This document shows positions 6,597 through 40,021 of a stretch of 43,950 bases of DNA, piece by piece; within the stretch, counting starts at the first letter, position 1, and each line of letters opens with the position of its first letter. The position numbers were made by a program, and so were the translations under genes. The notes under the pieces were generated by a model. That model was not told the DNA's origin. It searched no databases and saw only the letters and a program-made list of their open reading frames with translations. Source of the DNA: Candidatus Kaiserbacteria bacterium (lineage in GTDB: Bacteria > Patescibacteriota > Minisyncoccia > Phycocordibacterales > UBA918); assembly GCA_024653575.1 (NCBI GenBank), contig JANLIJ010000068.1, positions 1-43,950 of the forward strand, in the 5' to 3' direction.

Positions 6597-7412
6597 ATGG
6601 AATCAAATCAGGAAAAAGATGTTGTGGGTGCAACAACAGGAACTATCGCACTGGAAATTACTCCGGCGGAAACCGTTACTCCTACAATCTCTGAAGTCGC
6701 ATCACTCCCAACCGAAACAGCACTCGCTCTCGAGGCACCACTTCCATTTTACAAGAAACACCCGACGCTTCTCGCAAGCATTTTTGCGGGAATTGTTATC
6801 CTTGGAGCAGGATACTTTGCATATGCGACCTACTACGCACACGGCGGAACGGTAGCCGTGGTAAATGGAAAGCACATCTATCGTGATGAGTTCAACGAAA
6901 GTGTTGCACTTATCATACAAGGAGCCACAGCGCAGGGGGCGGACATCGCACAGGAATCCGTACAAGCCGAAATTCGCACACAGGCGCTCGACATACTCGT
7001 CAACAACGCACTCATTACCTCAGCGGCAACCGACGCAGGCATTGTCGCAACTGACGAGGAGGTGCAATCAAAGTATGATGAGATAATTACACAACTCGGT
7101 TCAAAAGAAGAACTTGCGAAGCGCATGGCAGAAGTTGGCCTCACTGAGGAAAAACTTCGCAGTAACATAAGCGATCGCATACTCGCTGATGCGTACATCA
7201 ATTCAAAAGCGACCATCAAGGATCTTGCGGTAACTGAGGAAGAGGTGAATGCGTTCATACTCGGACTTGGTGCAGGAGCGGGAGAACTTCCACCACTTGA
7301 GGAAATACGCCCACAAATCGAAGAACAGATACTTGGACAGAAGCAACAGCAATTGATTACTGACATTATCACGAAACTCCGAGAGGAGGGGAACATTGAT
7401 ATTCGGATATAA
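6597..7412 (+). CDS. membrane-anchored SurA N-terminal-domain chaperone-like protein (no parvulin domain seen)
   Basis: One TM segment (LLASIFAGIVILGAGYFAYA), then a SurA_N-like helical region (IRTQALDILVNNALI...EEVQSKYDEI...). Confidence 0.6.
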   Translation: MESNQEKDVVGATTGTIALEITPAETVTPTISEVASLPTETALALEAPLPFYKKHPTLLASIFAGIVILGAGYFAYATYYAHGGTVAVVNGKHIYRDEFNESVALIIQGATAQGADIAQESVQAEIRTQALDILVNNALITSAATDAGIVATDEEVQSKYDEIITQLGSKEELAKRMAEVGLTEEKLRSNISDRILADAYINSKATIKDLAVTEEEVNAFILGLGAGAGELPPLEEIRPQIEEQILGQKQQQLITDIITKLREEGNIDIRI

Positions 7413-7422
7413 GTTTGACGCA

Positions 7423-7469
7423 TACTACTAAACCCCGCGCGACCGGAGGTCGCGCGGGGTTTAGTAGTA
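7423..7469. terminator. 22-bp perfect hairpin (terminator-like)
   Basis: TACTACTAAACCCCGCGCGACCggaGGTCGCGCGGGGTTTAGTAGTA; every position pairs. Confidence 0.6.
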
Positions 7470-7527
7470 TGAAACCTTAAAATAAACAGCGGTAAGAAAA
7501 GCAGGCGTCTTGCGTCACAATGAATAT

Positions 7528-7779
7528 ATGTACGAGCGATTCAATAATTACACACTCACACGCCCCCGCACTAAAAAAATCGTCGGGTGGTTTCTTGTTG
7601 TTTTTGGTTTCATCGCACTCATTACTCCACTCACCCCTGGAGGACTGCTCTTTTTCATCGGCCTAGAAATACTCGGACTTCGTTTCATCGGTACAGAAAA
7701 AGTGAAAAGCTTTTTTACACGACGTACCCCATTTGTTGCCCCCGAAACGATTACTGTTGATACCCAAACAAACTCCTAA
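7528..7779 (+). CDS. small membrane protein, PGPGW-like
   Basis: Two TM segments with the TPLTPGGLLFFIGLEILG motif. Start placed at the first ATG; the ORF track opens at a TTG at 7510. Confidence 0.55.
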   Translation: MYERFNNYTLTRPRTKKIVGWFLVVFGFIALITPLTPGGLLFFIGLEILGLRFIGTEKVKSFFTRRTPFVAPETITVDTQTNS

Positions 7780-9098: not shown

Positions 9099-9866
9099 AT
9101 GTTTGAAAAATTTCTTGAAGAAATAGGCCTTTCTGAAAAAGAGGCAAAAATATATCTCGCACTTCTTCAGGTTGATAGCGATTCAATCCATGACATCGCC
9201 ACCAAAACAAAAATCAATCGCACGACAGTGTATCCTGTTCTTGAGTCTCTAGGAAAAAAAGGTCTCGTGAGTGAAACTCAAGATGGCAAAAAAACGCTTT
9301 ACCAAGCAGCCGCTCCAGAACGGCTTGAAACCTATATGGAGCGGCAGAAAGTAGTGCTTCAAGAACAATCTGCCCGTCTTAAAGACATAATCCCGCAAAT
9401 CAAAAGTATCCAAAGAGAACAAGGTGAAAGACCAATAATAAAATACTTTGATGGTCGTGACGGAGCCATTTCAGCATATGAAGAGTTTTATAGCTTTGAT
9501 CCAAAGAAAAATGAAACTGGTTACTTTATATATAACAGAGATCTTGTGAGCGAAACATTCACTGAGGAAGAGAGAAAGAAATTTTTAACAATTCGCTATA
9601 CCAAAACGGTAATTCCCAACTCAATATACACAAACAAAGATGGTAAAATGGAATTTACTACACCTGGTATACGGACTAGAATTGACAGTGGCGAAAAATA
9701 TCCAATTTTAGCTGATATTACTATTATTGAAGATAGGATTATTGCGGTAACACTCGGAAACGTCATATCATCTGTTCTAATCAAAAGCAAAGACCTCGCA
9801 GTAACGCTAAGCTCTCTTGTGCGCTATATTAACGATACATCAAAAAATGAAAAGGGCGGGAAGTAA
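9099..9866 (+). CDS. TrmB-family transcriptional regulator (paralogue of 145..930)
   Basis: GLSEKEAKIYLALLQVDSDSIHDIATKTKINRTTVYPVLESLGKKGLV, with a C-terminal domain collinear with the first copy. Confidence 0.8.
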   Translation: MFEKFLEEIGLSEKEAKIYLALLQVDSDSIHDIATKTKINRTTVYPVLESLGKKGLVSETQDGKKTLYQAAAPERLETYMERQKVVLQEQSARLKDIIPQIKSIQREQGERPIIKYFDGRDGAISAYEEFYSFDPKKNETGYFIYNRDLVSETFTEEERKKFLTIRYTKTVIPNSIYTNKDGKMEFTTPGIRTRIDSGEKYPILADITIIEDRIIAVTLGNVISSVLIKSKDLAVTLSSLVRYINDTSKNEKGGK

Positions 9867-9888
9867 TCAAACTTCCCGCCCCTGTTTT
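9854..9888. terminator. bidirectional terminator overlapping the stop codon of 9099..9866
   Basis: GGGCGGGAAGTaatcaaACTTCCCGCCC, with T-runs on both strands (ctgtttt on plus; ttttcatttttt on minus). Confidence 0.75.
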
Positions 9889-10137
9889 GCCATGTTTCAC
9901 ATAAACGTTTTGTTATGCGTCAATGCTGAAACTACACAAGTCGCGTTCGCGCGAACTGATGAACCACTAGGAATCACCCACGATTTTCACTCCTTACTTA
10001 AGAACAAATGCGCATGATGCGCCCTTCACTCACTCTAATTTAAACTCCACAGGGTCGTTTTAGTCCTTCTTTTCCAAGCAAAGCTTGGAAAAGAAGGGTT
10101 AGAAGTCGCCCATGACGTTCTCCTTAAAGATGAACTT
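9889..10137 (-). ncRNA. candidate leftward non-coding transcript of about 250 nt with two 4-codon mini-ORFs
   Basis: Bounded by the minus-strand promoter at 10144..10171 and the terminator at 9854..9888. The only reading frames with a strong SD are the mini-ORFs: AAGGAG-n6-ATGGGCGACTTCTAA (10099..10113) and AAGGAG-n8-GTGGGTGATTCCTAG (9967..9981). Confidence 0.45.
10065..10097. repeat. 15-bp perfect hairpin (CCTTCTTTTCCAAGC aaa GCTTGGAAAAGAAGG)
   Basis: Read directly from the sequence. On the minus strand it starts 1 nt after the stop codon of mini-ORF 1. Confidence 0.8.
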
Positions 10138-10143
10138 ATTGCT

Positions 10144-10171
10144 AGTATATCAGGTTCTTTTATTGTGTCAA
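10144..10171 (-). promoter_or_regulatory. near-consensus sigma70 promoter (leftward)
   Basis: Minus strand reads aatattgcTTGACA, 16 nt, TATACT. Confidence 0.6.
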
Positions 10172-10306
10172 GCAATATTAACTACATATGTCAACTTTGT
10201 GAACGAATTAATGTTATTTTGTTAGTATAAATAGTCTATTTTAATAGGCTATTTTCTTTATTTATCAACGTTTTTGTGAATAATTGACTTTTCTTGTCAA
10301 TATTGC

Positions 10307-10334
10307 TTGACAAGATTTTAAATAGGAGTATAAT
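10307..10334 (+). promoter_or_regulatory. consensus sigma70 promoter (rightward)
   Basis: aatattgcTTGACA, 16 nt, TATAAT. An 8-bp inverted repeat (CTTGTCAA/TTGACAAG) overlaps the -35 element. Confidence 0.65.
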
Positions 10335-10340
10335 ACCCGT

Positions 10341-11109
10341 GTCAGGTTAGAAAAACATTTGGTTGCCACCGTAAGGGCACAAGACCAAATATTCACTGGC
10401 TATAAATTAAGTTTTCTAAGATGTATCGGTTGCCGAGCATATCGACAGCCGAATACATCCCAGAAAATGAGTTCTTTGAAAAAATGCGGACTTTCCGCAG
10501 CTGCGCCTCGGGTACTGGGGTAGGGGACTGTTATGCTCGTACAGAAAAATGGCCGTTGGTACTACTACTCCTGGACAACTGGGTATGTGGCTATCAAGCC
10601 TCCACGTAAGTGAGGCGGTGCAGTAGACGTTGGAGGTGTGTTACGTAGCAACAGAACCCTCCCGTTTGTCCCCGTTCGTTATATGGAGAGTCCAAGGGAA
10701 GCAGAACCCTCCGGTATAGACTCCGAGACAAAAGTCACAAAATGGTGAGTGAGTGCATTCCGCACGCTCACCACCTTTATCAGGTTCATCACTCAGTGGT
10801 GAGTCTGTAGAGATTTGTTCTTTGCAAGATGAAGATACGCCCACAGTACTGTGTTTGCATATATCACTATGTCATCACAGTACTGTGGGTGTTTGGAGAG
10901 AACGCACATAGGTAACCCGTATCGGACGGTCGCTTTGCCAAGAGCGAATGCCGATTAATGCGGTGGTGACATGGTCACGGTTGGACGGCTGGTTTGTCTA
11001 ACCAAACTACCTTCGCGAGGGTAGTGGGCATCAAAGTATCGATGCAGTCCCTTTGGCGGGGACATCTCTCTGGGGAAAGGTGGTAATTCCGCCCCTTTCC
11101 CCTTCTGTC
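10341..11109 (+). ncRNA. candidate large structured non-coding RNA or processed leader (about 770 nt), 3' end defined by hammerhead cleavage
   Basis: Lies downstream of the consensus promoter. No convincing ORF. Many perfect helices, for example 10840-10853/10876-10889 (14 bp) and 11072-11080/11094-11102 (9 bp). Family not recognised. Confidence 0.5.
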
Positions 11110-11157
11110 CACGAGTGTGTACTCGTGCTGATGAGCTCGAAAGAGCGAAACAGATGG
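11101..11157 (+). ncRNA. hammerhead ribozyme, type III topology
   Basis: CCUUCUG-UC|CACGAGUguguACUCGUG-CUGAUGA-GCUCgaaaGAGC-GAAA-CAGAUGG. All invariant core nucleotides are present, all three helices are correctly placed, and there is a GUC cleavage triplet. Confidence 0.9.
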
Positions 11158-11177
11158 TCTTTGAATATTTTTCTTGG

Positions 11178-11220
11178 TTGGTGGAATCAGTTTGTACACA
11201 GTACTGATTGATTCCACCAA
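11178..11220 (+). promoter_or_regulatory. strong hairpin immediately 5' of the RBS of 11234..11596
   Basis: TTGGTGGAATCAGT (11178-11191) pairs with 11207-11220 (about 14 bp including one G-U). SD GAGGAG at 11222. Confidence 0.6.
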
Positions 11221-11233
11221 CGAGGAGAAAAAA

Positions 11234-11596
11234 ATGAAAAACTGGCTCAAAGGTTTTGGTATCGGGTTACTCATGATTATTGTTGCGTTCGTGACTGCTT
11301 TTGTCGCGGACCTCACGGTAATCGTGCAGACTGGGGACCAGGTACCGCTGTATCATCTTTTCGTGATACTTCTGGTAACTTGGTTTTGCGAAGTGATTGT
11401 CCTCATTCCGTACGGATCAATACCACGCAAAGTCACATGGGATGCCTTTTTGGCACGAAGTGTATTTGTGTGGTTGCCTGTCGGTGCGGGATGGTACCTC
11501 GCTCACAACGTGTCGGCCTCTGCATTTTTGGTGGGACTCATAATCTCGTCAACTTGTGTGGGGTACAACATCGTGGTGACCAACGTCGAGAGATAG
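11234..11596 (+). CDS. small integral membrane protein (about 4 TM), unknown function
   Basis: SD gaggag 6 nt upstream of the ATG. 120 aa with four hydrophobic spans. ORF track 11174..11596. Confidence 0.6.
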   Translation: MKNWLKGFGIGLLMIIVAFVTAFVADLTVIVQTGDQVPLYHLFVILLVTWFCEVIVLIPYGSIPRKVTWDAFLARSVFVWLPVGAGWYLAHNVSASAFLVGLIISSTCVGYNIVVTNVER

Positions 11597-11678
11597 TAGT
11601 TCGACGATAAACCTCTCCGCGATTCTCTTCCGCGTGTAGATGAGAAAGGTTTTGTGATACACCTTAAAAAGGCCACAT

Positions 11679-11699
11679 GGAGAAAACATCGTTTTCTCC
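11679..11699 (+). terminator. hairpin of inter-cassette module A (terminator-like)
   Basis: GGAGAAAACatcGTTTTCTCC, followed by tcttcatacacttttt. Confidence 0.5.
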
Positions 11700-11803
11700 T
11701 CTTCATACACTTTTTGGAGTTTCGGAGATTGTTAGAGATTACGTTCTTTGAATACCGCGAATTCCTTCGCACCGCGCCTCGGGTACTGGGGTAGGAGACC
11801 GTC

Positions 11804-12064
11804 ATGGCTGAGAAACAAGTCTGCGCTGTGTGCCGTACCACTGGGAAGCTTGGTGCTGAGTGGACTGCGCAAATCGGCGATGACCGACTCCGCGTCCACA
11901 AGCCCTGTGGCCAGCGCCTCGCAGAGACCGCGCCCGTGGGAGTTGTCGTCAAACTCTCCCCCAGTCCGGAGCTTCGCGAAAGCTGGAAACAGCAATCCCG
12001 CGAACGCCAAGTGCGCGACTTCTGGAAAGGGAAGTTTGCGTCGGCAGGAGCTCGCGCGCCGTGA
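11804..12064 (+). CDS. small hypothetical protein with CxxC...HxxC motif (zinc-ribbon-like?)
   Basis: SD AGGAG 7 nt upstream. MAEKQVCAVCRTTG...W...HKPC. GC-rich. Confidence 0.5.
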   Translation: MAEKQVCAVCRTTGKLGAEWTAQIGDDRLRVHKPCGQRLAETAPVGVVVKLSPSPELRESWKQQSRERQVRDFWKGKFASAGARAP

Positions 12065-12077
12065 GGCGCGCGGTTCA

Positions 12078-12097
12078 GGAGAAACACCCGTTTCTCC
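12078..12097 (+). terminator. hairpin of inter-cassette module B (paralogue of 11679..11699)
   Basis: GGAGAAACacccGTTTCTCC, followed by actttatacagttt. Confidence 0.45.
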
Positions 12098-12168
12098 ACT
12101 TTATACAGTTTCTAAATAGTTTGGAGATTGTTAGAGAACTGTTCTTTCATCACACAAAGGAGACTCAT

Positions 12169-12450
12169 ATGCACACGACACAGATTGAGCTTTTCATCGG
12201 GTACGAGAAAGTGCCGACGGCACTTCAGGACGGTGACGTTCTTGTCGTGACCGAGCGCCATGGGACCGTCGGTTTCGTCCGAAATGGTACCCCCCTCAAA
12301 CGGAAAGAGGGGGACGACAAGTTCATCGCATGTGGCGCCTGCGTCACACAAGCTCTGATGTTCTTCGGCATCAGTACCGAGCTCGTGTCCGATGTGGACG
12401 GTGTCAAACTTTACCAGCTCCATATGCGGAGCGAAGAGACCCCATCGTGA
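12169..12450 (+). CDS. small hypothetical protein (93 aa)
   Basis: SD AAAGGAG 7 nt upstream of the ATG at 12169. ORF track 12061..12450. No family recognised. Confidence 0.5.
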   Translation: MHTTQIELFIGYEKVPTALQDGDVLVVTERHGTVGFVRNGTPLKRKEGDDKFIACGACVTQALMFFGISTELVSDVDGVKLYQLHMRSEETPS

Positions 12451-12464
12451 TGGGACAGCCTCTC

Positions 12465-12492
12465 GCGCGTGACCAACGGTCGCGCGCTTTTT
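12465..12492 (+). terminator. intrinsic terminator closing the cassette
   Basis: GCGCGTGACCaacGGTCGCGCGC plus TTTTT. Confidence 0.75.
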
Positions 12493-12567
12493 CTTGGAAG
12501 TATTCTGTACTGAACCCAAGTCAAACCATCTTAGTAAAGCATTGGTGCATTGTGCTACTATATTTTT

Positions 12568-12981
12568 ATGGAAATACGGAATTGTTTTTATCGCATTAGC
12601 ATCAAAGCGCTCGTGCTCAACGAAAATCGAGATAAGTTTTTAATTGTGAAAGAGGATGATGGTCGTTGGGAACTTCCCGGTGGTGGTCTCGATTGGGGTT
12701 CGACTCCACATGAGGACCTTCCGCGAGAAATTAGTGAGGAAATGGGAGTGAATGTGACGTGGATAGCAGACCGCCCTTCATATTTTTTAACATGCCAAAA
12801 TAGCAATCATGAAATTTGGATTGCAAATGTTCTCTATGAGACAAAGCTTGAAAGTCTTGATTTTACTGCATCGAGTGAATGTACTGAAGTACGTTTTGTG
12901 AATGTAGAAGAACTCAAAGAACTTAATACGTTTCCAAACCTTAAGATATTTGGAGAGATGTTTGACCCTAAGAATCACTAG
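12568..12981 (+). CDS. NUDIX hydrolase
   Basis: Nudix box: GGGLDWGSTPHEDLPREISEEMGV. Start at the first ATG (MEIRN). Confidence 0.85.
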   Translation: MEIRNCFYRISIKALVLNENRDKFLIVKEDDGRWELPGGGLDWGSTPHEDLPREISEEMGVNVTWIADRPSYFLTCQNSNHEIWIANVLYETKLESLDFTASSECTEVRFVNVEELKELNTFPNLKIFGEMFDPKNH

Positions 12982-13024
12982 AATCTATCGAGTCTCTCTG
13001 AACACAGTATTTTAATAAAAAACA

Positions 13025-13057
13025 AGCCCGGGGTGCGTGAGCACCTCGGGCTTTTTT
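13025..13057. terminator. bidirectional terminator between the NUDIX gene and thrC
   Basis: AGCCCGGGGTG..CACCTCGGGCT plus TTTTTT. Confidence 0.7.
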
Positions 13058-13084
13058 GAAACTGGGCATTGCGCCCAGAGTTGG

Positions 13085-14518
13085 TCAAACGTTGTCCGCG
13101 ATGAAGGACTTCACTTCGGCGGAACTTGCGGGGATGATTACGACGCGCTGAGGCAAATCCTCAATTCCGATGAAGTCAGCGTGACTGGCAGGGTAGGAAC
13201 CAGTTGCTTCACGAATTGTTTCCTCGAACTTCATGGCCTGCGCCGTCTCGAGAACGATGACATTGTCCCCAGGCCGACGAAGGCGACGAGCGACCGTAAG
13301 CGCATCGGCGGTATGGGTATCGATCATAAGACGATAATTTTTCCACACCGAGCGAATCGTTGCGAGACGGTCGGCATGGGTACTCACGCCGGAGACAAAG
13401 CCAAAGTCCTTGATTCTGGTACATGCCCACCACGTGGTACCGCTAAGATCGAACTGACCCTTGTCCTTGAGGATCTTCCACAACTCGCTTACCACAGATG
13501 GGTCGCCATCAATGAAATCGTGGACGAACCGCTCGAAGTTGGATGCCTTCGAGATATCCATCGACGGGCTTGAGGTAACGTGCGTCTCGGAGTTTTTCCG
13601 CGGGCGATACACGCCCGTACGAACAAACTCGTCGAGCACATCGTTCTCGTTCGTGGAGAGAATGAGTCTGTCAATTGGCAAACCCATCATGCGCGCAATA
13701 TGCCCTGCGCAGATGTTGCCGAAGTTGCCCGTGGGAACGGCAAAGTCGACGACCTCGTCATTGTTCTTCGTCGCGGAGAAATACCCCTTGAAGTAGTAGA
13801 CAATTTGGGCGAGGACGCGTGCCCAGTTGATGGAGTTCACGGCACCAATCTTGTACTTCGCCTTGAACTCAGCATCATCCGAGACAGCCTTCACAATATC
13901 CTGCGCATCATCGAACATGCCGTGAACAGCGAGGTTGAAAATGTTCGGGTCCTGAAGGGAATACATCTGCGCACGTTGGAAGGGGCTCATCTTGCCCTCC
14001 GGTGAGAGCATGAACACCTTGATACCCTTCTTGCCGAGCATTGCGTACTCTGCTGCCGAGCCTGTGTCGCCCGACGTCGCGCCGAGAATATTCATCACCT
14101 CGCCACGCCGTCCAAGCTCGTACTCGAAGAGGTTACCCAAAAGTTGCAGGGCAATATCCTTGAAGGCGAGCGTCGGCCCATTCGAAAGCTCGAGAAGGTG
14201 AAGACCCGAATCGAGCGTGACGAGTGGCGTAATGTCCTCGGGGTTGTACCCGTCGCGACAATACTTGTAGACATCGGCCGTGTACGTCCTCTCGCAGATT
14301 GCCCGCAAATCCTTGTGCGGAATGTCAACGATGTAGAGCGAAAGAATTTCATACGCAAGTTCTGCGTACGACAACTCTCGCCAGTCATTGAGCATGTTTG
14401 CTGTCACGCGTGGGTACGACATCGGCAAGTAGAGACCTCCGTCCGGCGCCAACCCTCCGAGGAGGATGTCGCAAAACGATTCTGGCTTTCCACCGCCACG
14501 GGTTGAAAGGTACTTCAT
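13085..14518 (-). CDS. thrC: threonine synthase (PLP-dependent)
   Basis: MKYLSTRGG N-terminus. PLP-lysine motif GPTLAFKD. GATSGDTGSAA. Strong SD GAGGAGG before the ATG at 14518. Confidence 0.88.
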   Translation of the reverse strand: MKYLSTRGGGKPESFCDILLGGLAPDGGLYLPMSYPRVTANMLNDWRELSYAELAYEILSLYIVDIPHKDLRAICERTYTADVYKYCRDGYNPEDITPLVTLDSGLHLLELSNGPTLAFKDIALQLLGNLFEYELGRRGEVMNILGATSGDTGSAAEYAMLGKKGIKVFMLSPEGKMSPFQRAQMYSLQDPNIFNLAVHGMFDDAQDIVKAVSDDAEFKAKYKIGAVNSINWARVLAQIVYYFKGYFSATKNNDEVVDFAVPTGNFGNICAGHIARMMGLPIDRLILSTNENDVLDEFVRTGVYRPRKNSETHVTSSPSMDISKASNFERFVHDFIDGDPSVVSELWKILKDKGQFDLSGTTWWACTRIKDFGFVSGVSTHADRLATIRSVWKNYRLMIDTHTADALTVARRLRRPGDNVIVLETAQAMKFEETIREATGSYPASHADFIGIEDLPQRVVIIPASSAEVKSFIADNV

Positions 14519-14614
14519 GAGAATCCTCCTCAAAAAATTGTCGAAGACCATGGCCCAAAAAGAACCATGTAATCTGTGAGGAAGCGTACTATTACATACC
14601 AGCGAAGTCAAACG

Positions 14615-14655
14615 AGAGCCACCCGCACATGACTCTGTCATGTGCGGGTGGCTCT
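14615..14655 (-). terminator. 19-bp perfect hairpin between the toxin gene stop and the thrC start
   Basis: AGAGCCACCCGCACATGACtctGTCATGTGCGGGTGGCTCT. On the minus strand it is followed by cgttt. Confidence 0.6.
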
Positions 14656-15263: not shown

Positions 15264-16190
15264 CTACCCCCTCGAATGAAACTTCTTGTGAATATCTCTG
15301 AGGTGTTTGTCGGTGACGTGGGTGTATATTTGCGTCGTTGCAATGTTGGCGTGGCCGAGGAGCGCCTGCACGGAACGAAGGTCAGCGCCGTTACTCAAGA
15401 GGTCGGTAGCGAAGCAATGTCGGAGTTTGTGGGGAGTGACTTTACGCGTGATGCCTGAGATTGTTGCATACCGCTTGATGATGCGTTGTACGCTACGGGG
15501 AGTGAGGCGGAGGTCGATGTTTTTTTCATCATTATGCTTTGCATTTTTTCCATACTGAATGAACATTGCATCATCAAAGTCTTTTCGCTCCTTGAGGTAC
15601 GCCTTAATAGCATCTCGTGCGGTGTCTGAAAGAAACACTACACGGACTTTGTCACCCTTCCCTCGAATTGAAAATTCGTCACGAGTAAGATCAACGTCCT
15701 CCTGAGAAAGGGAACAGAGTTCTGAGACACGGAGGCCAGTCGAGAAGAGGAGTTCGAGAATTGCGCGGTCTCGAAGACCACTCAGTGTATTGGAATCAGG
15801 TGCCTCGATGAGACGCGTGAGCTCGGCAGGGGAGATGAGGTCAAGTGAACGCTCGGGAACCTTCGCAAGTTCAATGCGCTCGGGGTTGAGCGACTCTATA
15901 CCACGCTTGCGAAGATATTTAAGGAAGGCACGAAGCGCGATGAGGTAATAGTTCTGTGTTTTGCGCTTCAGTGTCTCCACATTTCGACCAACTTTTGTTC
16001 CTTGTTGCCGATTGAGCCAGAGGCGGTACTCACGTACCTGTGTTTCAGTAACATCCTTTGGGCCGTCTACCTTTGCATACTCTAAAAAGCGAGTGAGGTA
16101 GTGATCGTAGTTCCTGACAGTGAGAATACTGCGCCCCTTTTCAATTTCGAGGTATTCAAGAAACTCACGTTTTAGTTCTTTGAGCGTCAT
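15264..16190 (-). CDS. xerC: tyrosine recombinase, XerC/XerD-like
   Basis: N-terminal SAM-like core-binding domain. Catalytic residues R...HKLRHCFAT...LLGH...TQIYTHV. Confidence 0.85.
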   Translation of the reverse strand: MTLKELKREFLEYLEIEKGRSILTVRNYDHYLTRFLEYAKVDGPKDVTETQVREYRLWLNRQQGTKVGRNVETLKRKTQNYYLIALRAFLKYLRKRGIESLNPERIELAKVPERSLDLISPAELTRLIEAPDSNTLSGLRDRAILELLFSTGLRVSELCSLSQEDVDLTRDEFSIRGKGDKVRVVFLSDTARDAIKAYLKERKDFDDAMFIQYGKNAKHNDEKNIDLRLTPRSVQRIIKRYATISGITRKVTPHKLRHCFATDLLSNGADLRSVQALLGHANIATTQIYTHVTDKHLRDIHKKFHSRG

Positions 16191-16290
16191 ACCTATATAT
16201 AGTACACGAGAAGTGTCGCAAAATATTGCTTCATTCCACACCAATATCCTAAAATGTAAAAGCCCGAAAGCGGTGGGCTTTTACGGGCTT

Positions 16291-17616: not shown

Positions 17617-17856
17617 TATTCCCATCTTTGATACACTCTGTTCATTATAAGGAGTGATTTGGATAGGTGGGTTTCAAGCATGTTGTTTGAAATTCAAAAT
17701 TCAAATCACTCAATAACGTAATAAATTAGAACGTTCATAGGTGGATACAGTTTGAGGAGAAACAAATTTTTCGAGTGACACGTACTCAAATGTACGATGA
17801 ACGAGAAAAATGAAGATTCAACGAAAAAATGTGCCACCTATGGGCGTTATAACAAT

Positions 17857-19992
17857 ATGGAAAAGAAATCATATACCGTTGACCTCGAAGGGAAAACACT
17901 CACCGCCACCTTTACCAACCTCACCAATCAAGCGCATGGTTCTGTCATGGTGGGCATGGGTGAGACGGTTGTCCTCGTCACCGCAGTCATGAGCAAGCAC
18001 ACCGCAGGGAACATGTCGTACTTCCCACTCTCTGTAGAATTTGAGGAAAAGTTTTATGCTACCGGACAGATTCTCGGGAGCAGGTTCCAAAGACGTGAAG
18101 GCCGTCCGAGCGACGGTGCTGTCCTTTCGGCGCGTATTGTCGACCGTACCATTCGGCCACTCTTCAACCATGGTATTCGAAACGAAGTGCAGGTGGTTGC
18201 AACCGTGCTCAGCGCTGGTGAAGATGATCCTGATGTACTCGCTGTTATCGGAGCATCACTCGCACTCGGTGTCTCAGATATTCCATGGGACGGACCAATC
18301 GGCGCTGTGCGTATTGGGAAGCGAAAGGATACGGGAGAGATTGTAATAAACCCAATGTATACCGAGCGTGAAGCGGGAATACTCACCTATGAAGTGCTCG
18401 CCTGTGGAAAGGACAACACCATCAATATGATTGAAACGGCTGGATTTGAAATCAGTGAGGGGGAAGTCGTACACGCACTCGAACATGCAGTGACACTCAT
18501 TACGAAACTCCAGGAATTCCAGAACACGATTATTCAGGAAATTGGAAAAACAAAACGTGATGTTGCAATTCCCGAGCTCGATGAAGCAACGCTCGCGCTC
18601 TTCACGGAGCGTATTGCTCCAAAGCTCACAACTACTCTCTTCAGCAACCAATCGGGGAAGGCACACCTCTACGAACTCAAGGATGAATGGCTCACACTTT
18701 TGGGCGAGGCTATTCCTGATGCATCAGCGAGTCTTGCAGGAGAATATTTTGAACATGCAGTGGATGTGGAGCTCCATCGTGGCGTCATTCACGACAAGGT
18801 CCGTCCCGATGGGCGCGGTATGGATGAGGTGCGTCCACTCTTTGCACAAGCTGGAGGCATTAGCCCCGCACTCCATGGATCGGGTATTTTCTATCGTGGT
18901 GAAACGCACATCTTTTCTGCACTCACCTTGGGTGGCCCTGATGATTCTCAAATACTCGACTCCATAGAAGAGAACGGTACGAAGAAACACTTCATGCACC
19001 ACTACAACTTCCCACCATTCTCAGTCGGAGAGACGGGACGCGTGGGAGGACAAAATCGCCGTATGATTGGTCATGGTGCACTCGCTGAGAAAGCACTCTT
19101 TGCCGTCATTCCAGAAAAGACAGAGTTCCCGTACACCATCCGACTCGTTTCAGAAACGATGGCGTCGAATGGTTCGAGCTCTATGGGTTCGGTCTGTGCA
19201 TCGACACTCGCACTCATGGATGGAGGAGTTCCTATCAAGCGACCTGTCGCAGGTATTGCATCGGGGCTCATGATGGATGACCACAATACCTATCAGCTCA
19301 TCACCGATATCCAAGGACCCGAAGATGAACATGGCGATATGGACTTCAAAGTAGCGGGGACGCGCGAAGGAATTACCGCAATTCAAATGGATGTAAAGGT
19401 GGGAGGTATCCCCGTACCTGTTCTCGCCGAAGCACTCGAGAAAGCACGCGTTGCCAGACTCCACATTCTTGAAACACTCGAAGCTGAAATCGGCGCACCG
19501 CGACCTGACATCTCACCGCGTGCACCAAAGATTATTGTGATGCAAATTAATCCTGATCAAATCGGACTCGTCATTGGTGGAGGTGGAAAAACCATCAACG
19601 GCATTAAGGATGAAACTGGTGTCGATGAAATCACCATCGAAGATGACGGCACGGTATATATCACCGGAAAGGCGGGCGCTCCAGAACTTGCGCGTGCGCG
19701 CATCGCTGACCTTACGAGAGTCTTCGCAATTGGTGAAAGACTTGATGCTGAAATAACACGCATAGCGACATTCGGCGCATTTGCACGAATTGGTGGGCAG
19801 AGCGAAGGGCTCATCCACATCTCTGAGATTGTGTCATGGCGCCTTGAAAATCTCGATGGCATTCTCAAAGTCGGAGACGTTGTCCCTATTGTCGTCTCAA
19901 AAATTGAAGATGGGAAAATCGGTCTCTCAATTAAAAAGGCAGACCCCGAGTGGGCAGAGAAGAAGGGACTCAAGGCTCCCGAGAAGAAATAA
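17857..19992 (+). CDS. pnp: polyribonucleotide nucleotidyltransferase (PNPase)
   Basis: Two RNase PH domains, then KH (VIGGGGKTI) and S1 (GLIHISE) domains. Start chosen at MEKKSY; the ORF opens at 17797. Confidence 0.93.
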   Translation: MEKKSYTVDLEGKTLTATFTNLTNQAHGSVMVGMGETVVLVTAVMSKHTAGNMSYFPLSVEFEEKFYATGQILGSRFQRREGRPSDGAVLSARIVDRTIRPLFNHGIRNEVQVVATVLSAGEDDPDVLAVIGASLALGVSDIPWDGPIGAVRIGKRKDTGEIVINPMYTEREAGILTYEVLACGKDNTINMIETAGFEISEGEVVHALEHAVTLITKLQEFQNTIIQEIGKTKRDVAIPELDEATLALFTERIAPKLTTTLFSNQSGKAHLYELKDEWLTLLGEAIPDASASLAGEYFEHAVDVELHRGVIHDKVRPDGRGMDEVRPLFAQAGGISPALHGSGIFYRGETHIFSALTLGGPDDSQILDSIEENGTKKHFMHHYNFPPFSVGETGRVGGQNRRMIGHGALAEKALFAVIPEKTEFPYTIRLVSETMASNGSSSMGSVCASTLALMDGGVPIKRPVAGIASGLMMDDHNTYQLITDIQGPEDEHGDMDFKVAGTREGITAIQMDVKVGGIPVPVLAEALEKARVARLHILETLEAEIGAPRPDISPRAPKIIVMQINPDQIGLVIGGGGKTINGIKDETGVDEITIEDDGTVYITGKAGAPELARARIADLTRVFAIGERLDAEITRIATFGAFARIGGQSEGLIHISEIVSWRLENLDGILKVGDVVPIVVSKIEDGKIGLSIKKADPEWAEKKGLKAPEKK

Positions 19993-34271: not shown

Positions 34272-36488
34272 ATGTTTGCAAAGATTAACAACCTCATAAC
34301 GAAAAAGACCTTCCTCGGTCTACTCTTGTGTGTGATTGTTTTCTTGACACCGGTATCTGCGACGTACATACCGAGTAATGATGCTACCGTACAGAAGATA
34401 GAAGGGGAAGTGCTTGTTGCTTTTGCAAAGGACCCGAACGACAAGGGGTTGGGGTATCTGACTGATTCAGAATTACTTGGTATGGCGAAAGGATCTTATT
34501 ATGAAATGTGGAAATCTCTTGGCCTCTGGATTGGAAACACAATCCTTGCAGTAGCATCTATGTTTACCTACGTTGGAGGAACATTCCTTGATATGTCTCT
34601 TAAGATAACGGTATTTAAAATGGGAGACCTCATCAACGGTGGCGTCGGGAATGCAATAAACAACACGTGGAAAATCATTCGAGATATCTGCAACCTCGCA
34701 TTCATCTTTGGTTTTGTATACATCGGTATCCGCACTATCATCGACCCCGAGAGCGCATCCACGAAGCGCTTCCTCTCAAAGATTATTATCGGGGCACTCC
34801 TCATCAACTTCAGTCTCTTCTTTGTAAAATTCATTGTTGATTTTTCCAATTTCACCGCGTACCACATCTATAATGCGATGGTAAGTGGAGAAGGATCTCT
34901 CTCTGCAACGGTTGCGAACATGCTTGGCATTGTCTCTCTTTTTAAAGCCCCTGACCCTGCTCAATTTGCTCAACTTACAAATGGAGCATCCTTTTGGTTT
35001 TTCGTATTTGGAGCAATTCTCCTCCTTATTGTCGCGTTCGTATTTTTTGCTGCTGCGATACACCTTATAACCAGGTTTGTTGCCCTTGTACTTATCATGG
35101 TTGGCTCACCCATCCTCTTCGCAGCGACCGTCTTCCCCCAGACAGAACACTACGCAAGTGATATGTGGAAGAAACTCATTTCATACGCATTCTTCGCTCC
35201 GGTATTTCTACTCCTCATTCTTATATCCCTCACACTCGTGCAGGGACTGGGTACTGCTATCGCGCCCAATGGTTCTTCTTTCGTAACAGCCCTTAAACAG
35301 GGCAGTAACTCGTCTGTAGGACAAACAGGCTCAATGGGTATTATCTTAAATTTTGCGGTCATTATCTTCTTCTTCATCCAATCTCTCCTCCTTGCACAGA
35401 AGATGGGTGTTGCAGGAGGAGATGCCGCGGTGAGCATGGGGAACAAAATACGAGGAAATGTCCAGAGTGCAATAGGAAGAAATACCATTGGCGCAGCTTC
35501 ACATAAAATCCGTGAGAAATATGAAGAATTTGATGCAAAAACCAAAGATAGTAAAAATTGGAATCGCCTAAAAACTGTTGGGAAAATTGCGACGCTTGGT
35601 GCTGTTGATGACAGGACGATACGCCAAACCCTAGAAGCTGGAGAACATGCAAAATTTGGTGGGTCGTATTCTTATGAAGATGATAAGAAATACAGTGACT
35701 CACGTACAGCTCGTCAGGCAAAGACGCTCGAGACAGAAAAGATAAAAGCTACGATAGAAGCAGGCGCCTCTACACCTGTCGGAGACCCCGCAAGAATTCC
35801 GATGGAGAGAGCTATCGCAGGAGCTTCTTCCGAACAGATTCTGTCGCTCTTGGCTGACCCTGAGTATAAACACGGCACTCCTAAATATAATGAACTTGTT
35901 GGGCATCTCTCTTCAAGCCAATTTGAGAATGTCATGAAAGCAAAACCAGAAGACTTTGATGATGCAAAAAAGGCTCAGGTCTCGGCTAGTCGTGCATCAT
36001 TTATAAAGACCAAACATGGTGTGGTTGGGGGAGCCGTAGGAGCAACACCAGGAACTATTGGAAAGGCTGATGCGAGCGATCTTGATGCAATGGACTTTGA
36101 TACGGTCGTTCAACATGCTGGTCACATAAGTGCAAAACAAATTGATGACATGAAGGGGCTTACGCCGACTGCGAAAAAGACGCTCAAGGACGCAAGAAAT
36201 AACGCACTCATTAAGGAATTTAAACCTGCAGGAGTCTCAACTCCAGCTTCTGCAACGAGTTTGTTCAATAGAATAACAAATGATACTGAACGTTCAAAGC
36301 TTCCTCCAGAAATATTAACTGATACAAAAGCAGCTCAGCATCTTAACGCAAATGTGCTCACAAAAATTCTTGATAATGATTCTATTGACTCTGTTAAAAG
36401 AAACACCATTAAGACAAATGTTCAGATGATCCATGGAAATAATGCTTTTAATAACTTCTTTACCACACCTGCAGGTAGTAGATACTAA
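34272..36488 (+). CDS. polytopic membrane protein, TrbL/VirB6-like, with a long soluble C-terminal tail
   Basis: About 7 hydrophobic spans in residues 80-380, followed by a Lys-rich tail of about 330 aa. Sits beside VirB3/VirB4 homologues. Confidence 0.55.
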   Translation: MFAKINNLITKKTFLGLLLCVIVFLTPVSATYIPSNDATVQKIEGEVLVAFAKDPNDKGLGYLTDSELLGMAKGSYYEMWKSLGLWIGNTILAVASMFTYVGGTFLDMSLKITVFKMGDLINGGVGNAINNTWKIIRDICNLAFIFGFVYIGIRTIIDPESASTKRFLSKIIIGALLINFSLFFVKFIVDFSNFTAYHIYNAMVSGEGSLSATVANMLGIVSLFKAPDPAQFAQLTNGASFWFFVFGAILLLIVAFVFFAAAIHLITRFVALVLIMVGSPILFAATVFPQTEHYASDMWKKLISYAFFAPVFLLLILISLTLVQGLGTAIAPNGSSFVTALKQGSNSSVGQTGSMGIILNFAVIIFFFIQSLLLAQKMGVAGGDAAVSMGNKIRGNVQSAIGRNTIGAASHKIREKYEEFDAKTKDSKNWNRLKTVGKIATLGAVDDRTIRQTLEAGEHAKFGGSYSYEDDKKYSDSRTARQAKTLETEKIKATIEAGASTPVGDPARIPMERAIAGASSEQILSLLADPEYKHGTPKYNELVGHLSSSQFENVMKAKPEDFDDAKKAQVSASRASFIKTKHGVVGGAVGATPGTIGKADASDLDAMDFDTVVQHAGHISAKQIDDMKGLTPTAKKTLKDARNNALIKEFKPAGVSTPASATSLFNRITNDTERSKLPPEILTDTKAAQHLNANVLTKILDNDSIDSVKRNTIKTNVQMIHGNNAFNNFFTTPAGSRY

Positions 36489-38230: not shown

Positions 38231-40021
38231 ATGGGACTTCTTGACTTCATCCAACAAAAGAAACAAGCGTCGACTGAAGTAGTCGCTGACACAAACACAC
38301 TCTCTCTTCCTGATGTGGTTGCCCCTTCGGCAATCAGTATCAACCCAAAGAGTATTAGTGTGAGCGGTCGTCTCTCTCGCGTTTTCTTTGCCGTCTCATA
38401 CCCACGGACACTCACTGATGGATGGCTCGAACCAATCCTCAATATCGAAAAGGAAATCGATGTTTCAATAGTCATCCATCCCATCGATACTGCAGAAACA
38501 CTCAAAAAATTCCAAAAGAAGGTTGCAGAAGTACAGAGTCAAATCAATGAACGGGCAAATGAGGGAAAGGTCCGCGACCCACAGCTCGATGCCGCATACC
38601 GCAACCTCGAGGACCTCAGAGATAAGCTCCAGCAGGCTGAGGAAAAACTCTTTAATGTGGGGCTCTACATAGCCCTCTACGGCGAGACGGAAGCTGACCT
38701 CAACAAGACCGAGTCGGAGATTCGTGCAATCCTCGACGCGCGTATGGTGTACATCAAGCCGGCCCTCTTCCAACAAGAGGAGGGGTTCCTCAGTGTCATC
38801 CCTACAGTCACCGACAAACTTCTCGTACACACAAAATTCAACTCGTCTCCGCTCTCGAGCTTTTTCCCGTTCACCTCCTTCGACCTCACCTCTGACACCG
38901 GGATTCTCTATGGCATCAATCGTCACAACAGCTCTCTCGTACTCTTCGACCGCTTTACCCTTACGAACTACAACTCAGTCACCTTCGCCACCTCGGGAGC
39001 AGGGAAGTCGTACACCACAAAACTCGAAATCCTCCGTTCACTCATGTTTGGGACTGAGGTCATCGTCATAGACCCAGAACATGAATATGAACAATTGGCA
39101 GAGGCGACTGGTGGACGATTCTTCAACATCTCACTCTCCTCAAACCACCACATCAATCCATTTGACCTTCCTGTCCCGCTTCCCGATGAAAATCCTAAAG
39201 AACTCCTTCGCTCCCACATCATTGAACTCATCGGGCTCTTCAAACTCATGCTCGGGGGCCTCTCTCCTGAGGAGGATGCGGTCATTGATGCTGCGCTTCA
39301 CGAAGTATATGCACTCAAGGACATTACGGGCTCTGGTGATTATCGCGATCTCGAACCACCACTTCTCTCAGACTTTGAGATGGTGCTTGCAGGAATGGAG
39401 GGGAGTGAGTCCCTCGTCCAGCGCCTCACAAAGTACACATCGGGAACGTGGGCAGGCTTTATGAACGAAGCAACGAACGTGGACATCAATCAAAAGTTTG
39501 TGGTTTTCTCACTCCGCGATATGGAAGAAGATTTGAAGACGATTGCCATGTACATTATTACGAATCACATTTGGGGAGCGGTGCGCAGGGAACTGAAGAA
39601 ACGTCTCCTCGTTATCGATGAGGCATGGTGGATGCTCAAGTCTGAGGACACCGCTGCCTTCCTCCACAACATTGCAAAACGTGGTCGCAAATACTACCTT
39701 GGTCTCTCTACTATCACGCAAGACGTCGATGACTTCCTCAGGTCACCCTATGGCGTACCGATGATTACCAACTCGTCGATACAGCTTCTCATGAAACAAT
39801 CTCCGACCGCGGTGGATACGCTCCAAAATGTCTTTAATCTCACTGATGAAGAACGTCTCACCCTCCTCGAATCGAGCGTTGGAGAAGGAATATTCTTCGT
39901 CGGACTCAAGCACGTTGCCATCAAGGTAATCGCTTCGTACACCGAAGACCAAATCATCACCTCCGACCCCTCACAACTTCTCCAAATACAACAGGCTCGC
40001 GCTGAGCTGGGGAGAAATTAA
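38231..40021 (+). CDS. virB4: VirB4/TrbE-family T4SS ATPase
   Basis: Walker A ATSGAGKSYT. Walker B LLVIDEAWWML. Downstream RKYYLGLSTITQ. Confidence 0.88.
   Translation: MGLLDFIQQKKQASTEVVADTNTLSLPDVVAPSAISINPKSISVSGRLSRVFFAVSYPRTLTDGWLEPILNIEKEIDVSIVIHPIDTAETLKKFQKKVAEVQSQINERANEGKVRDPQLDAAYRNLEDLRDKLQQAEEKLFNVGLYIALYGETEADLNKTESEIRAILDARMVYIKPALFQQEEGFLSVIPTVTDKLLVHTKFNSSPLSSFFPFTSFDLTSDTGILYGINRHNSSLVLFDRFTLTNYNSVTFATSGAGKSYTTKLEILRSLMFGTEVIVIDPEHEYEQLAEATGGRFFNISLSSNHHINPFDLPVPLPDENPKELLRSHIIELIGLFKLMLGGLSPEEDAVIDAALHEVYALKDITGSGDYRDLEPPLLSDFEMVLAGMEGSESLVQRLTKYTSGTWAGFMNEATNVDINQKFVVFSLRDMEEDLKTIAMYIITNHIWGAVRRELKKRLLVIDEAWWMLKSEDTAAFLHNIAKRGRKYYLGLSTITQDVDDFLRSPYGVPMITNSSIQLLMKQSPTAVDTLQNVFNLTDEERLTLLESSVGEGIFFVGLKHVAIKVIASYTEDQIITSDPSQLLQIQQARAELGRN

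Follow-up and report, generated by a model that had tools for sequence, protein, structure and literature searches.

The stretch of DNA analysed here, called the window throughout, comprises 43,950 nucleotides (nt) of contig JANLIJ010000068.1 (assembly GCA_024653575.1) from a groundwater bacterium, Candidatus Kaiserbacteria, of the candidate phyla radiation (CPR, or Patescibacteria). Between the genes for a TrmB-family regulator and a NUDIX hydrolase, the window carries one operon of tiny, strain-variable genes, with a hammerhead ribozyme and further conserved RNA elements lying between the genes. This layout recurs in more than 100 patescibacterial loci, in which a gene of the TrmB type is the commonest neighbour. 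The locus is quite probably a TrmB-linked operon of small strain-variable genes which is transcribed as a single RNA and punctuated by modules for RNA processing or insulation.

The transcription unit extends from a promoter at 10307-10334 to a terminator at 12465-12487, and 10341-12487 is read as one unit because no other good promoter or terminator is predicted on the plus strand before position 12465. The forward promoter, P(+), is kept in the related loci L225, L226 and L054 (loci are cited by such numbers below), and transcription from it would begin near 10341. A divergent promoter, P(-), is invariant in sequence across L225, L226 and L227. A sequence-only reading of this DNA had described a bidirectional promoter region and terminators on both sides of the unit, and both descriptions hold: the two promoters are of the sigma-70 type, with 12 of 12 consensus matches on the plus strand and 11 of 12 on the minus strand, and terminator-like hairpins were found at 9854-9881 and 12465-12487. 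The first of these hairpins is bidirectional and ends both the TrmB transcript and a short divergent transcript.

Four small genes are framed by the single promoter and terminator: a 26-codon gene (pep26) and the genes for a protein with four predicted membrane helices (4-TM protein), a zinc-knuckle protein (CxxC protein) and a protein of 93 amino acids (aa). The order of elements per gene is always the terminal hairpin of the previous cistron, a boundary element, the motif GUUCUUUGAA (motif M), a 5′ untranslated region (5′UTR) and finally a Shine-Dalgarno (SD) sequence with the ATG. Two kinds of boundary element occur, a type III hammerhead and a long bulged hairpin, called X. Other open reading frames (ORFs), namely three on the minus strand (113, 198 and 135 aa) and one of 28 codons at 10829, were dismissed, as they overlap conserved plus-strand genes or a hairpin and have no SD sequence. 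No tRNA or tmRNA was found.

On the evidence of its sequence, the element at 11103-11155 is a genuine type III hammerhead with a canonical core, and self-cleavage is predicted. Stem III pairs UCUGU with ACAGA, the cleavage triplet is GUC (11107-11109) and the predicted cut falls between C11109 and C11110. Stem I (11110-11127) reads CACGAGU-GUGU-ACUCGUG, with GUGU as its loop, and stem II (11135-11146) reads GCUC-GAAA-GAGC, with GAAA as its loop. CUGAUGA is found at 11128-11134 and GAAA at 11147-11150, so that the catalytic core CUGANGA...GAAA and an NUH triplet are all in place. A covariance model was built from an alignment of 146 distinct related copies, and the window copy scores 75.1 bits against it (E 3.7e-20), which upholds the ribozyme proposed earlier. 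Across the 146 copies, 99.4% of the stem I cells are paired and six of the seven pairs show compensatory changes, stem II is paired in 96.2% with three of four pairs covarying, and stem III has four invariant pairs and two weaker ones. The observed covariation score was reached by none of 500 shuffles, and no slid register comes close to it. This test is not circular, since the stem positions were N in the search pattern. Moreover, a hairpin of variable sequence abuts the cleavage site ahead of essentially all 159 related hammerheads. The 44-kb window holds one hammerhead only, and the next best match to the model has 13 bits.

The Rfam scans covered three spans, and in the window nothing reached a gathering score. 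At an E value of 10 the best match among the hammerhead families (RF00008, RF02275 and others) is HH9 at 11110-11182, whose 20.5 bits fall well short of the threshold of 52. The low score is a shortcoming of the curated models, which under-score the variant, and not of the hammerhead core. As the hammerhead models of Rfam 15 fall this far below gathering for an abundant variant, standard annotation will miss the CPR copies.

A search pattern taken from the window copy and its relatives retrieved at least 119 stretches from contigs representing one genome per species, nearly all of them CPR metagenome-assembled genomes, and the array counts and neighbour tallies given here rest on this sampling. 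The covariance model finds at least 187 copies in at least 100 of the fetched loci (717 kb in total), and nhmmer finds at least 218 copies in at least 124 loci. By nhmmer, adjacent hammerheads within 2.5 kb are co-oriented in all 90 cases, and their spacing has a median of 627 nt. The density in the loci fetched is about 1.9 copies per 8-kb locus. The "grammar" of the relatives consists of co-oriented hammerheads, about one every 0.6 kb, standing ahead of hypervariable small genes. Seven copies are present in L007, five each in L005 and L019, and four or five each in L038, L089 and L094. When the ORFs which follow 137 of the copies were grouped by blastp, 126 unrelated clusters resulted. These ORFs have a median length of about 105-109 aa and are enriched neither in membrane segments (21% versus 16-20%) nor in CxxC pairs.

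Hammerheads of this sequence type (GUGU in loop I, a stem II of 4 bp, GAAACAG) are also found in 99 viral stretches of IMG/VR (L126-L224), mostly as one copy each and with a median spacing of 1.1 kb. A TrmB-like gene is present in none of these 99 loci, and motif M follows none of 130 viral hammerheads of this type. A particular arrangement was observed in L005 (5857-6458), where two hammerheads with identical 45-nt upstream sequences flank a homologue of the 4-TM gene as direct repeats. A double cut there would free an RNA of 549 nt whose ends could rebuild a complete hammerhead, and this RNA would be a candidate for circularisation.

Hairpin X fills the slot which is taken by hammerheads in the relatives. 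It is a single hairpin of about 17-20 bp, CUUUAU-CA...UG-UAGAGA, with a bulged U, and the window holds three copies (10775, 11701 and 12099), each after a G+C-rich hairpin and before M. An alignment of 17 copies yields 17 consensus pairs, ten of them with compensatory changes. The structure belongs to the sense RNA, because its near-invariant G-U pairs become C-A mismatches on the other strand. The alternation of the two boundary elements is visible in L061, where the order is X-M-ORF78-Y-hammerhead-M-...-X-M-ORF169-Y-X-M-L-ORF220-Y-hammerhead-M-ORF103-X-M-ORF57 (Y and L are described below). We infer from these features that X is a site either for processing by a double-strand-specific RNase or for protein binding. 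RNase III substrates have an uninterrupted duplex of about two turns; X, with 17 pairs and one bulge, and the 5′UTR hairpin of the 4-TM gene, with about 25 pairs, were both counted as sufficient.

The second element, motif Y, is about 75-100 nt long and has about 25 invariant junction nucleotides. It is known from 17-18 distinct copies in 12 loci, among them L005 (3520-3622), L061 (three copies) and L226, and it is rare in metagenomes, where a scan found 15 stretches only, often with several copies per contig (L235-L249). Y always occurs in these arrays, 3′ of an ORF and just ahead of the terminal hairpin and the boundary element. The loop of its hairpin P3 pairs with the four or five bases after GAGACAAA (GAGACAA(A)) to form a pseudoknot, for which 11 different helices are used; these reach at least 4 bp in 82% of 17 copies, versus 22% of cross-sequence combinations of loop and tail. 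Helices P1 and P3 covary as well, P3 changing from CGG/CCG to CAG/CUG. Helices P0, P1 and P3 and the pseudoknot were analysed by scripts because the MAFFT alignment is not in structural register. Y matches no Rfam family. Twister, twister-sister, pistol, hatchet, hepatitis delta virus-like and hairpin ribozymes were considered for both X and Y, and no Rfam match was obtained over 9700-12700 and 10330-11110.

Motif M (GTTCTTTGAA, or GWTCWTTGAAA) marks the start of each cistron's 5′UTR, behind a hammerhead or X, and its sites in the window are 10471, 10816, 11156, 11743 and 12141. In the CPR loci it lies 1-10 nt after the hammerhead in 91 of 154 copies by one count and in 111 of 206 by another. 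The exact form occurs seven times in the window against 1.6 expected, three of them at cassette starts. Two roles were considered for M and given up. As a -35 box of per-cassette promoters it would call for a -10 box, and none stands at any fixed distance downstream in 91 aligned copies. Nor did inspection by eye reveal consistent complementarity of M to the hammerhead, stem II or the 16S rRNA 3′ end.

The regulator gene ahead of the array is the conserved partner of these loci. When 1235 ORFs were clustered, the commonest neighbour of the hammerhead loci was the TrmB-like family (46 of 122), followed by ClpP with 12. Orthologues of full length, 41-84% identical, precede the hammerheads by 1-3.5 kb in the same orientation; shorter TrmB-like genes are placed divergently. 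Of about 19 loci that have a TrmB orthologue, 12 share a GTCAA-N6-TTGAC dyad, which lies between the TrmB gene and the first hammerhead at a distance of 350-650 nt from the TrmB stop codon. Its position over the forward -35 box is constant, and the chance expectation is about 0.004 per kb. About 16 TrmB-linked loci also have a divergent layout of promoter, strong SD sequence, mini-ORF (ATG-GGN-GAC with 0-4 further codons and a stop) and G+C-rich hairpin. L005, L010, L029, L054, L076, L089 and L094 are among them, and some loci have two or three tandem copies. The second codon of the mini-ORF varies; the ATG, the GAC and the nearby stop are kept. Since TrmB, the dyad and the divergent mini-ORF transcript accompany the arrays across the phylum, the TrmB gene belongs to the unit. 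The clear left boundary after TrmB, and with it the self-contained cassette between TrmB and NUDIX which had been drawn earlier, must therefore be given up.

The N-terminal winged-helix domain of the regulator is well supported, with 61.8 bits for PF01978 (cut-off 25.6) over residues 6-74. Matches in the PDB to TrmB and TrmBL2 (3QPH, 5BOX) span only residues 3-138, with E values from 7e-4 to 5e-3. The C-terminal sugar-binding domain of TrmB and TrmBL1 is absent by match: no match from NCBIfam or the PDB extends past about residue 130, the scores remain far below the equivalog cut-offs, and the C-terminal 120 residues match nothing. The position and conservation of the dyad suggest that the TrmB-like protein represses the operon through it. 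As a separate observation, no alignment to L225 is possible for 9492-9974 of the window, which comprises the TrmB 3′ portion and the terminator region, though the flanks are 82-90% identical, and L226, otherwise the more distant locus, does align there. The TrmB gene is a mosaic, which suggests recombination inside the platform.

The preferred reading of a punctuated, TrmB-linked operon can be laid out in steps. The TrmB-family protein would bind the GTCAA-N6-TTGAC dyad over the -35 box and the related site at the divergent promoter, and the operon would be repressed. On transcription, the hammerhead would cut the RNA at C11109/C11110, leaving an upstream RNA which ends in a hairpin with a 2′,3′-cyclic phosphate. 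The 4-TM mRNA would start with a 5′-OH, the folded ribozyme and a 25-bp hairpin gating the ribosome-binding site. The X hairpins, with their 17-20 bp of double-stranded RNA, would be cut by a double-strand-specific endonuclease such as RNase III, or would be bound by a protein to the same effect. The outcome would be single-gene RNAs whose stability and translation do not depend on the upstream cassette. Such independence matters because the gene content of the locus is reshuffled between strains.

Several points weigh against this reading. As the window has one hammerhead, the punctuated picture rests partly on X, whose cleavage is putative. Motifs M and Y and the proteins have no assigned role, and an ORF-free spacer of 250 nt (10825-11071) is left unexplained by the operon model. 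Binding of the TrmB protein to the dyad is deduced from position and conservation. The RNA support consists of a few assembled contigs over the 4-TM gene.

A wider proposal is possible but doubtful, namely that the arrays represent an undescribed cassette operon system extending over the whole CPR. It would combine a platform of TrmB, dyad and mini-ORF with a hypervariable row of genes and an RNA toolbox for the boundaries (hammerhead, X and M), and Y would be a new functional RNA class. Y might cleave itself as a ribozyme or might bind a ligand or a protein, and its setting beside hammerheads is one where new ribozyme classes were found before.

The variability of the array is evident from its relatives. 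L225 is about 90% identical to the window over 9974-13634 and agrees with it in its genes and their placement (cupredoxin, TrmB, array, NUDIX), with all RNA elements and proteins present; L226 and L227 are about 81% identical. L226 holds pep26, Y, X, a hammerhead, the CxxC gene and the 93-aa gene; L005 holds pep26, Y, hammerheads, the CxxC gene and the 4-TM gene; and L001 holds hammerheads, the CxxC gene and the 4-TM gene. The RNA elements and the proteins do therefore occur together in other genomes, a linkage on which the earlier proposal of a joint cassette depended. L226 to L230 keep cupredoxin, TrmB, promoter, pep26, Y, X and hammerhead, and then continue with other genes: ORFs of 71 and 85 aa, optional ones of 59 and 86 aa, a CxxC gene, an ORF of 100/117 aa, a receiver-like one of 150 aa and a homologue of the 93-aa gene. 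These arrays end at the genes for a tyrosine recombinase and ribosomal protein S15. The CxxC gene stands ahead of the 4-TM gene in L001 and L005 and behind it in the window. In contigs from other samples the modules of the window are arranged differently, and the breaks fall at 10469 (M), 11104 (hammerhead), 11153-11163 and 11740 (M). To judge from these alignments, the array is reshuffled at its boundary elements and the platform is kept. Beside these comparisons, it was observed that the window has a tyrosine recombinase gene of its own (15264-16244, minus strand), Xer-like by its neighbourhood, which lies 2.8 kb past the array and in L226 directly adjoins it.

Such reshuffling leads to an alternative in which the hammerhead or X, together with M, are primarily joints for cassette swapping, and the locus is a CPR counterpart of the integron with TrmB as a platform gene. 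Exchange would proceed by homologous recombination between the repeated elements of 50-60 nt, or through an RNA intermediate which is excised at two ribozyme sites, circularised and copied back. This is rather unlikely. In its favour, gene content varies behind a constant platform of TrmB and promoter, the order of shared genes differs, the similarity breaks fall at M, hammerhead and X, identical 45-nt sequences and hammerheads lie on both sides of the 4-TM gene in L005, and a recombinase stands beside or near the array in L226 and the window. However, neither an integron integrase nor attC-like sites are present. A recombinase is found in 10 of 122 loci only, and the conserved neighbourhood of recombinase and S15 looks like that of a housekeeping Xer. 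The recurrent neighbours include no reverse transcriptase, and Perreault et al. sought circular or spliced products of clustered hammerheads and found none (PMC3088659). Cassette exchange is in any case compatible with a processing function and adds to it.

The front part of the mRNA requires separate consideration. Over the 769 nt at 10341-11109 the minimum free energy is -305 kcal/mol, against -241 +/- 8 for shuffled sequences (z -8.0). The opposite strand gives z -5.8, and z is +1.0 for an equally long coding stretch of the PNPase gene, taken as a control. The sequence-only reading had seen here a structured RNA of about 770 nt, and the exceptional structure is indeed confirmed. The unity of the RNA is not, because the region holds the 26-codon gene and modules which recur elsewhere. 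By its sequence the region is a modular 5′ part of a polycistronic mRNA and not one RNA gene, so that the description as a ribozyme-processed large RNA does not fit.

The modules were resolved against the close relatives L225 and L226/L227 and the distant loci L005, L052, L054 and L061. They follow one another as two leader hairpins, M, leader L, pep26, Y, a terminal hairpin, X, an M-like motif, the ORF-free spacer with a hairpin, and the hairpin abutting the hammerhead. The 5′ leader is 70% identical to that of L226, with the stems preserved. Part of the front is repeated further on, since 73 nt at 10462-10535 match 11734-11806 ahead of the CxxC gene. The hairpin of leader L shows compensatory substitutions across six loci, and unrelated ORFs follow it. 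The peptide of pep26 is identical in L225 and L226, where its gene has one and five codon differences, all synonymous, and a homologue with 64% identity stands at the same position in L005. As the peptide is unchanged despite synonymous codon differences and its homologue is placed alike, pep26 is a real micro-gene. Its NGxWYYxxxxG core presumably recalls a single cell-wall-binding repeat. The long hairpin in the spacer matches only generic hairpin (microRNA) models in Rfam.

Against this background, it is very unlikely that 10341-11109 is one large structured noncoding RNA, in the manner of GOLLD, ROOL or OLE, which would be released by the hammerhead and work with the three proteins. The strong fold relative to the coding control speaks for such an RNA, as does the conservation of the region in L225 and L226 (81-90%, equal to or above that of the adjoining coding sequence), and its end coincides exactly with the hammerhead. 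It nevertheless contains a 26-codon gene with SD sequence and leader under clear purifying selection. L, Y, X and the hairpins recur separately, in other orders and numbers, for example in L061, and L226 has insertions of about 150 nt. The predicted fold is made up entirely of local hairpins, and GOLLD, ROOL, OLE, HEARO, raiA and the other large noncoding RNAs of Rfam 15 give no match even at an E value of 10 with lax filters.

The three longer ORFs of the operon match no family in Pfam, PHROG, PADLOC or NCBIfam, in agreement with the sequence-only reading, which had recognised no family for them. They are not common housekeeping proteins either, which was the outcome that might have overturned the earlier proposal: among 5.8 billion sequences, the 4-TM protein has seven homologues, all from CPR, the CxxC protein has one close homologue and the 93-aa protein has four, with 78-93% identity. 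Synonymous and non-synonymous codon differences number 11 and 1 for the 4-TM gene against L225; against two relatives they number 10/3 and 25/10 for the CxxC gene and 11/10 and 30/19 for the 93-aa gene. These counts indicate that all three genes are under purifying selection. The window sequence was found in DNA metagenomes and in one RNA run held as contigs, and the RNA contigs cover 11229-11516. The 4-TM gene had been described as guarded by a hairpin, which is borne out: a hairpin of about 25 bp lies over the SD sequence, its structure and covariation are kept in five other loci (L225, L052, L054, L001 and L005), and different ORFs follow it in L052 and L054.

In an exhaustive profile search of 1.84 billion representatives, the CxxC family comprises 58 clusters; C7, C10 and H32 never vary in it, and C35 is at least 90% conserved. 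Homologues occur in the TrmB/hammerhead loci L005, L001, L089, L226, L231 and L233. In the AlphaFold2 model (predicted local distance difference test, pLDDT, 84), a zinc knuckle is combined with a small sheet and a long basic helix; the fold search gives no PDB match below E 0.45, with a weak likeness to ZZ/RING knuckles. The 93-aa protein is predicted to be a small alpha/beta protein (pLDDT 79), and its likeness to GFRP (GTP cyclohydrolase I feedback regulatory protein) is weak and not significant (template-modelling score 0.5, E 0.13). The earlier statement that the protein genes are richer in G+C than their flanks is true of the CxxC gene (0.625) and the 93-aa gene (0.56), whereas the 4-TM gene, at 0.488, is ordinary among the window genes (0.466 +/- 0.048). 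The contrast is large partly because the flanks are unusually AT-rich (TrmB 0.374, NUDIX 0.391).

The small proteins could also be seen as parts of a toxin-antitoxin, abortive-infection or other defence island with the small membrane protein as effector, a view to which we give little credence. The genes are small, variable and accessory and include a membrane protein with hairpin-gated translation, a HicAB pair adjoins the array in L001-L004, and one hammerhead-led ORF elsewhere is PemK/MazF-like, by eye only. None of the proteins, however, has a match in PADLOC, Pfam or NCBIfam; a single dedicated function is hard to reconcile with the 126 unrelated families behind hammerheads, and the share of membrane segments there is not raised. 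The HicAB toxin-antitoxin genes themselves were observed directly after the L001-type array (L001-L004, about 7318-7710). A protein resembling STIV_B116 was likewise observed inside the L005 array (L005 5451-5762).

Least likely of all is the view that a prophage, a satellite or another mobile element once entered between TrmB and NUDIX and left this remnant: the hammerhead type shared with 99 IMG/VR stretches, two GC-rich genes against AT-rich flanks, the STIV_B116-like protein of L005 and the fact that prophages are the classic home of clustered hammerheads all point that way, but there is no integrase, structural or replication gene and no PHROG match, the site behind cupredoxin and TrmB is the same in three related genomes, the linkage of TrmB, dyad, mini-ORF and array extends to distant CPR lineages with housekeeping neighbours (ClpP, CCA-adding enzyme, S15, RNase Y), and the viral copies come without TrmB and without M. 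The earlier statements that the unit is accessory and that it holds no integrase, transposase or phage structural gene are supported, and the unit is strain-variable as well.

Table 1. Coordinates of the features of the TrmB-linked operon and its surroundings in the window (SD, Shine-Dalgarno sequence).
Feature	Position	Strand	Remarks
TrmB-family regulator, 255 aa	9099..9866	+	PF01978; conserved partner of the array
Bidirectional terminator hairpin	9852..9883	both	plus reading 9854-9881, minus reading 9883-9852; 11-13 pairs, T runs on both strands
Long G+C-rich hairpin after the mini-ORF	10058-10104	-	
Mini-ORF MGDF (ATG GGC GAC TTC TAA)	10113-10099	-	behind strong AAGGAG; start of a divergent transcript of about 250-290 nt
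Divergent promoter P(-)	10171-10144	-	TTGACA-16-TATACT with TG extension; 11/12 matches, sigma-70-type
Operator-like half-dyad GTCAAGCAATATTAAC	10166-10181		over the -35 box of P(-)
Candidate TrmB operator dyad GTCAATATTGCTTGAC (GTCAA-N6-TTGAC)	10296..10311		overlaps the -35 box of P(+)
Promoter P(+)	10307..10334	+	TTGACA-16-TATAAT; 12/12 matches, sigma-70-type
5′ leader	10341..10470	+	conserved hairpins at about 10357-10391 and about 10421-10460; minimum-free-energy fold
Motif M (GTTCTTTGA) and leader L, copy 1	10471..10532	+	L is a hairpin (10485-10499), then CCUCGGGUACUGGGGUAGGGGAC bearing the SD
pep26, 26-aa gene MLVQKNGRWYYYSWTTGYVAIKPPRK	10533..10613	+	own SD and leader; below ORF-length cut-offs
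Motif Y	10665..10737	+	closing stem UUUGUC/GACAAA, variable hairpin P1, invariant junction AGYCCAA-GGGAAGCAGARCCCUCC, hairpin P3, pseudoknot
Boundary module 1	10744..10824	+	terminal hairpin 10744-10772; X 10775-10813 (CUUUAUCAGG...CUGUAGAGA, bulged U); M-like GTTCTTTGC 10816-10824
Long hairpin, 25-nt arms	10837..10892	+	within the ORF-free spacer 10825-11071; conserved in L225, L226
Hairpin GGGGAAAGG...CCUUUCCCC abutting the hammerhead	11072..11102	+	minimum-free-energy fold
Type III hammerhead	11103..11155	+	own covariance model
M-like motif and 5′UTR hairpin of the 4-TM gene	11156..11230	+	M-like GGTCTTTGAA 11156-11165; hairpin of about 25 bp 11168-11230, 3′ arm covers SD GAGGAG 11222-11227
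4-TM protein, 120 aa	11234..11596	+	four predicted membrane helices
Boundary module 2	11679..11803	+	hairpin 11679-11699; X 11701-11738; M 11743-11751; leader L copy 2 11753-11803 (hairpin 11757-11770)
CxxC protein, 86 aa	11804..12064	+	zinc knuckle C7-x2-C10...H32-x2-C35, long basic C-terminal helix
Boundary module 3	12078..12149	+	hairpin 12078-12097; X 12099-12137; M 12141-12149
93-aa protein	12169..12450	+	
Intrinsic operon terminator	12465..12487	+	10 pairs, eight of them G-C, then TTTTTCTT
NUDIX hydrolase	12550-12981		
Threonine synthase	13085-14641	-	

Further along the window, the tyrosine recombinase gene is followed by that for PNPase (17797-19992), and type IV secretion genes are present as well, one TrbL/VirB6-like (34272-36488) and one for a TraG P-loop/VirB4-like ATPase (38231-40021).

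The CPR accounts for a large share of bacterial diversity, and gene regulation and RNA handling in this group are nearly uncharted. The arrays described here mean that a well-known ribozyme is used at scale in CPR chromosomes, in a form overlooked by the curated Rfam models. Their connection with a specific regulator and operator provides a testable regulon for a bacterial TrmB-like factor. In addition, at least three conserved RNA elements (X, Y and M) are without known function, Y with a pseudoknot supported by covariation, and the locus would be a natural case of gene insulation by ribozyme and hairpin in a shuffled array. Because the small proteins are strain-variable, it may be speculated that they bear on the host-attached lifestyle.

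Hammerhead-punctuated operons and the ribozyme class itself are already known. Multiple hammerheads flanking individual prophage genes, whose identities are not constant, were described by Perreault et al. in 2011 (PMC3088659). Processing of polycistronic RNA into gene-length pieces by clustered hammerheads was proposed there and partly demonstrated, with three cases shown; in these other bacteria the evidence was obtained in vitro and in vivo (PMC3088659). The prophage clusters and the CPR arrays share the presence of several co-oriented copies within a few kb, between short and changing genes. They differ in that the CPR arrays are chromosomal and syntenic and are linked to a TrmB-like regulator, to a dyad operator and to a divergent mini-ORF transcript, and in that the CPR hammerheads are followed by M, absent after the viral copies, and are interchangeable with X, a hairpin that is not a ribozyme. 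In the window there is one hammerhead and no cluster, clusters being found in its relatives L005, L007 and L019. Nor does the window have a prophage context, as it gives no PHROG match, its neighbours are housekeeping genes and its position is syntenic. Full-text literature searches, whose coverage was incomplete, returned no description of CPR-wide or TrmB-linked chromosomal arrays, of the regulator platform, of the interchange of hammerhead and X or of motifs X, Y and M; because of this coverage, novelty is not proven. The earlier statement that this is not a described system is therefore too broad as regards clustered hammerheads around single genes, known from prophages, and stands for the TrmB-linked chromosomal version with its extra motifs, of which no description was found.

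With the integron arrays the CPR unit shares a constant promoter platform, followed by variable, short, mostly orphan and co-oriented genes with structured repeats between them. Unlike integrons, it contains no IntI, attI, attC or GTTRRRY core, and the nearest tyrosine recombinase is the Xer-like one mentioned above; its repeats are RNA elements with G-U pairs and strand-specific structure, including one proven ribozyme class. The regulator can be compared with TrmB and TrmBL of the Thermococcales, which act on dyad operators near promoters in these archaea. The N-terminal winged helix and the dimerisation helix are common to both, whereas the window protein is bacterial, resembles them over residues 3-138 only and has an inferred target.

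Two further systems have a similar logic at the level of RNA. In the early polycistronic mRNA of phage T7, RNase III cuts intercistronic hairpins, and each mRNA is left with a stabilising 3′ hairpin. Long hairpins between the cistrons of one transcript are found in both systems; X differs from the T7 sites by its base CUUUAU.../...UAGAGA with a bulged U, its cleavage is putative and its host belongs to the CPR. RiboJ, in turn, is a synthetic insulator made of a hammerhead and a hairpin, which makes expression independent of the upstream sequence. There, as would be the case at 11103-11155, 11168-11230 and the following SD sequence of the window, the ribozyme removes the upstream RNA and the next hairpin presents the ribosome-binding site. 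The version in the window is a natural one, in which M lies between ribozyme and hairpin, and the hairpin covers part of the SD sequence rather than exposing it.

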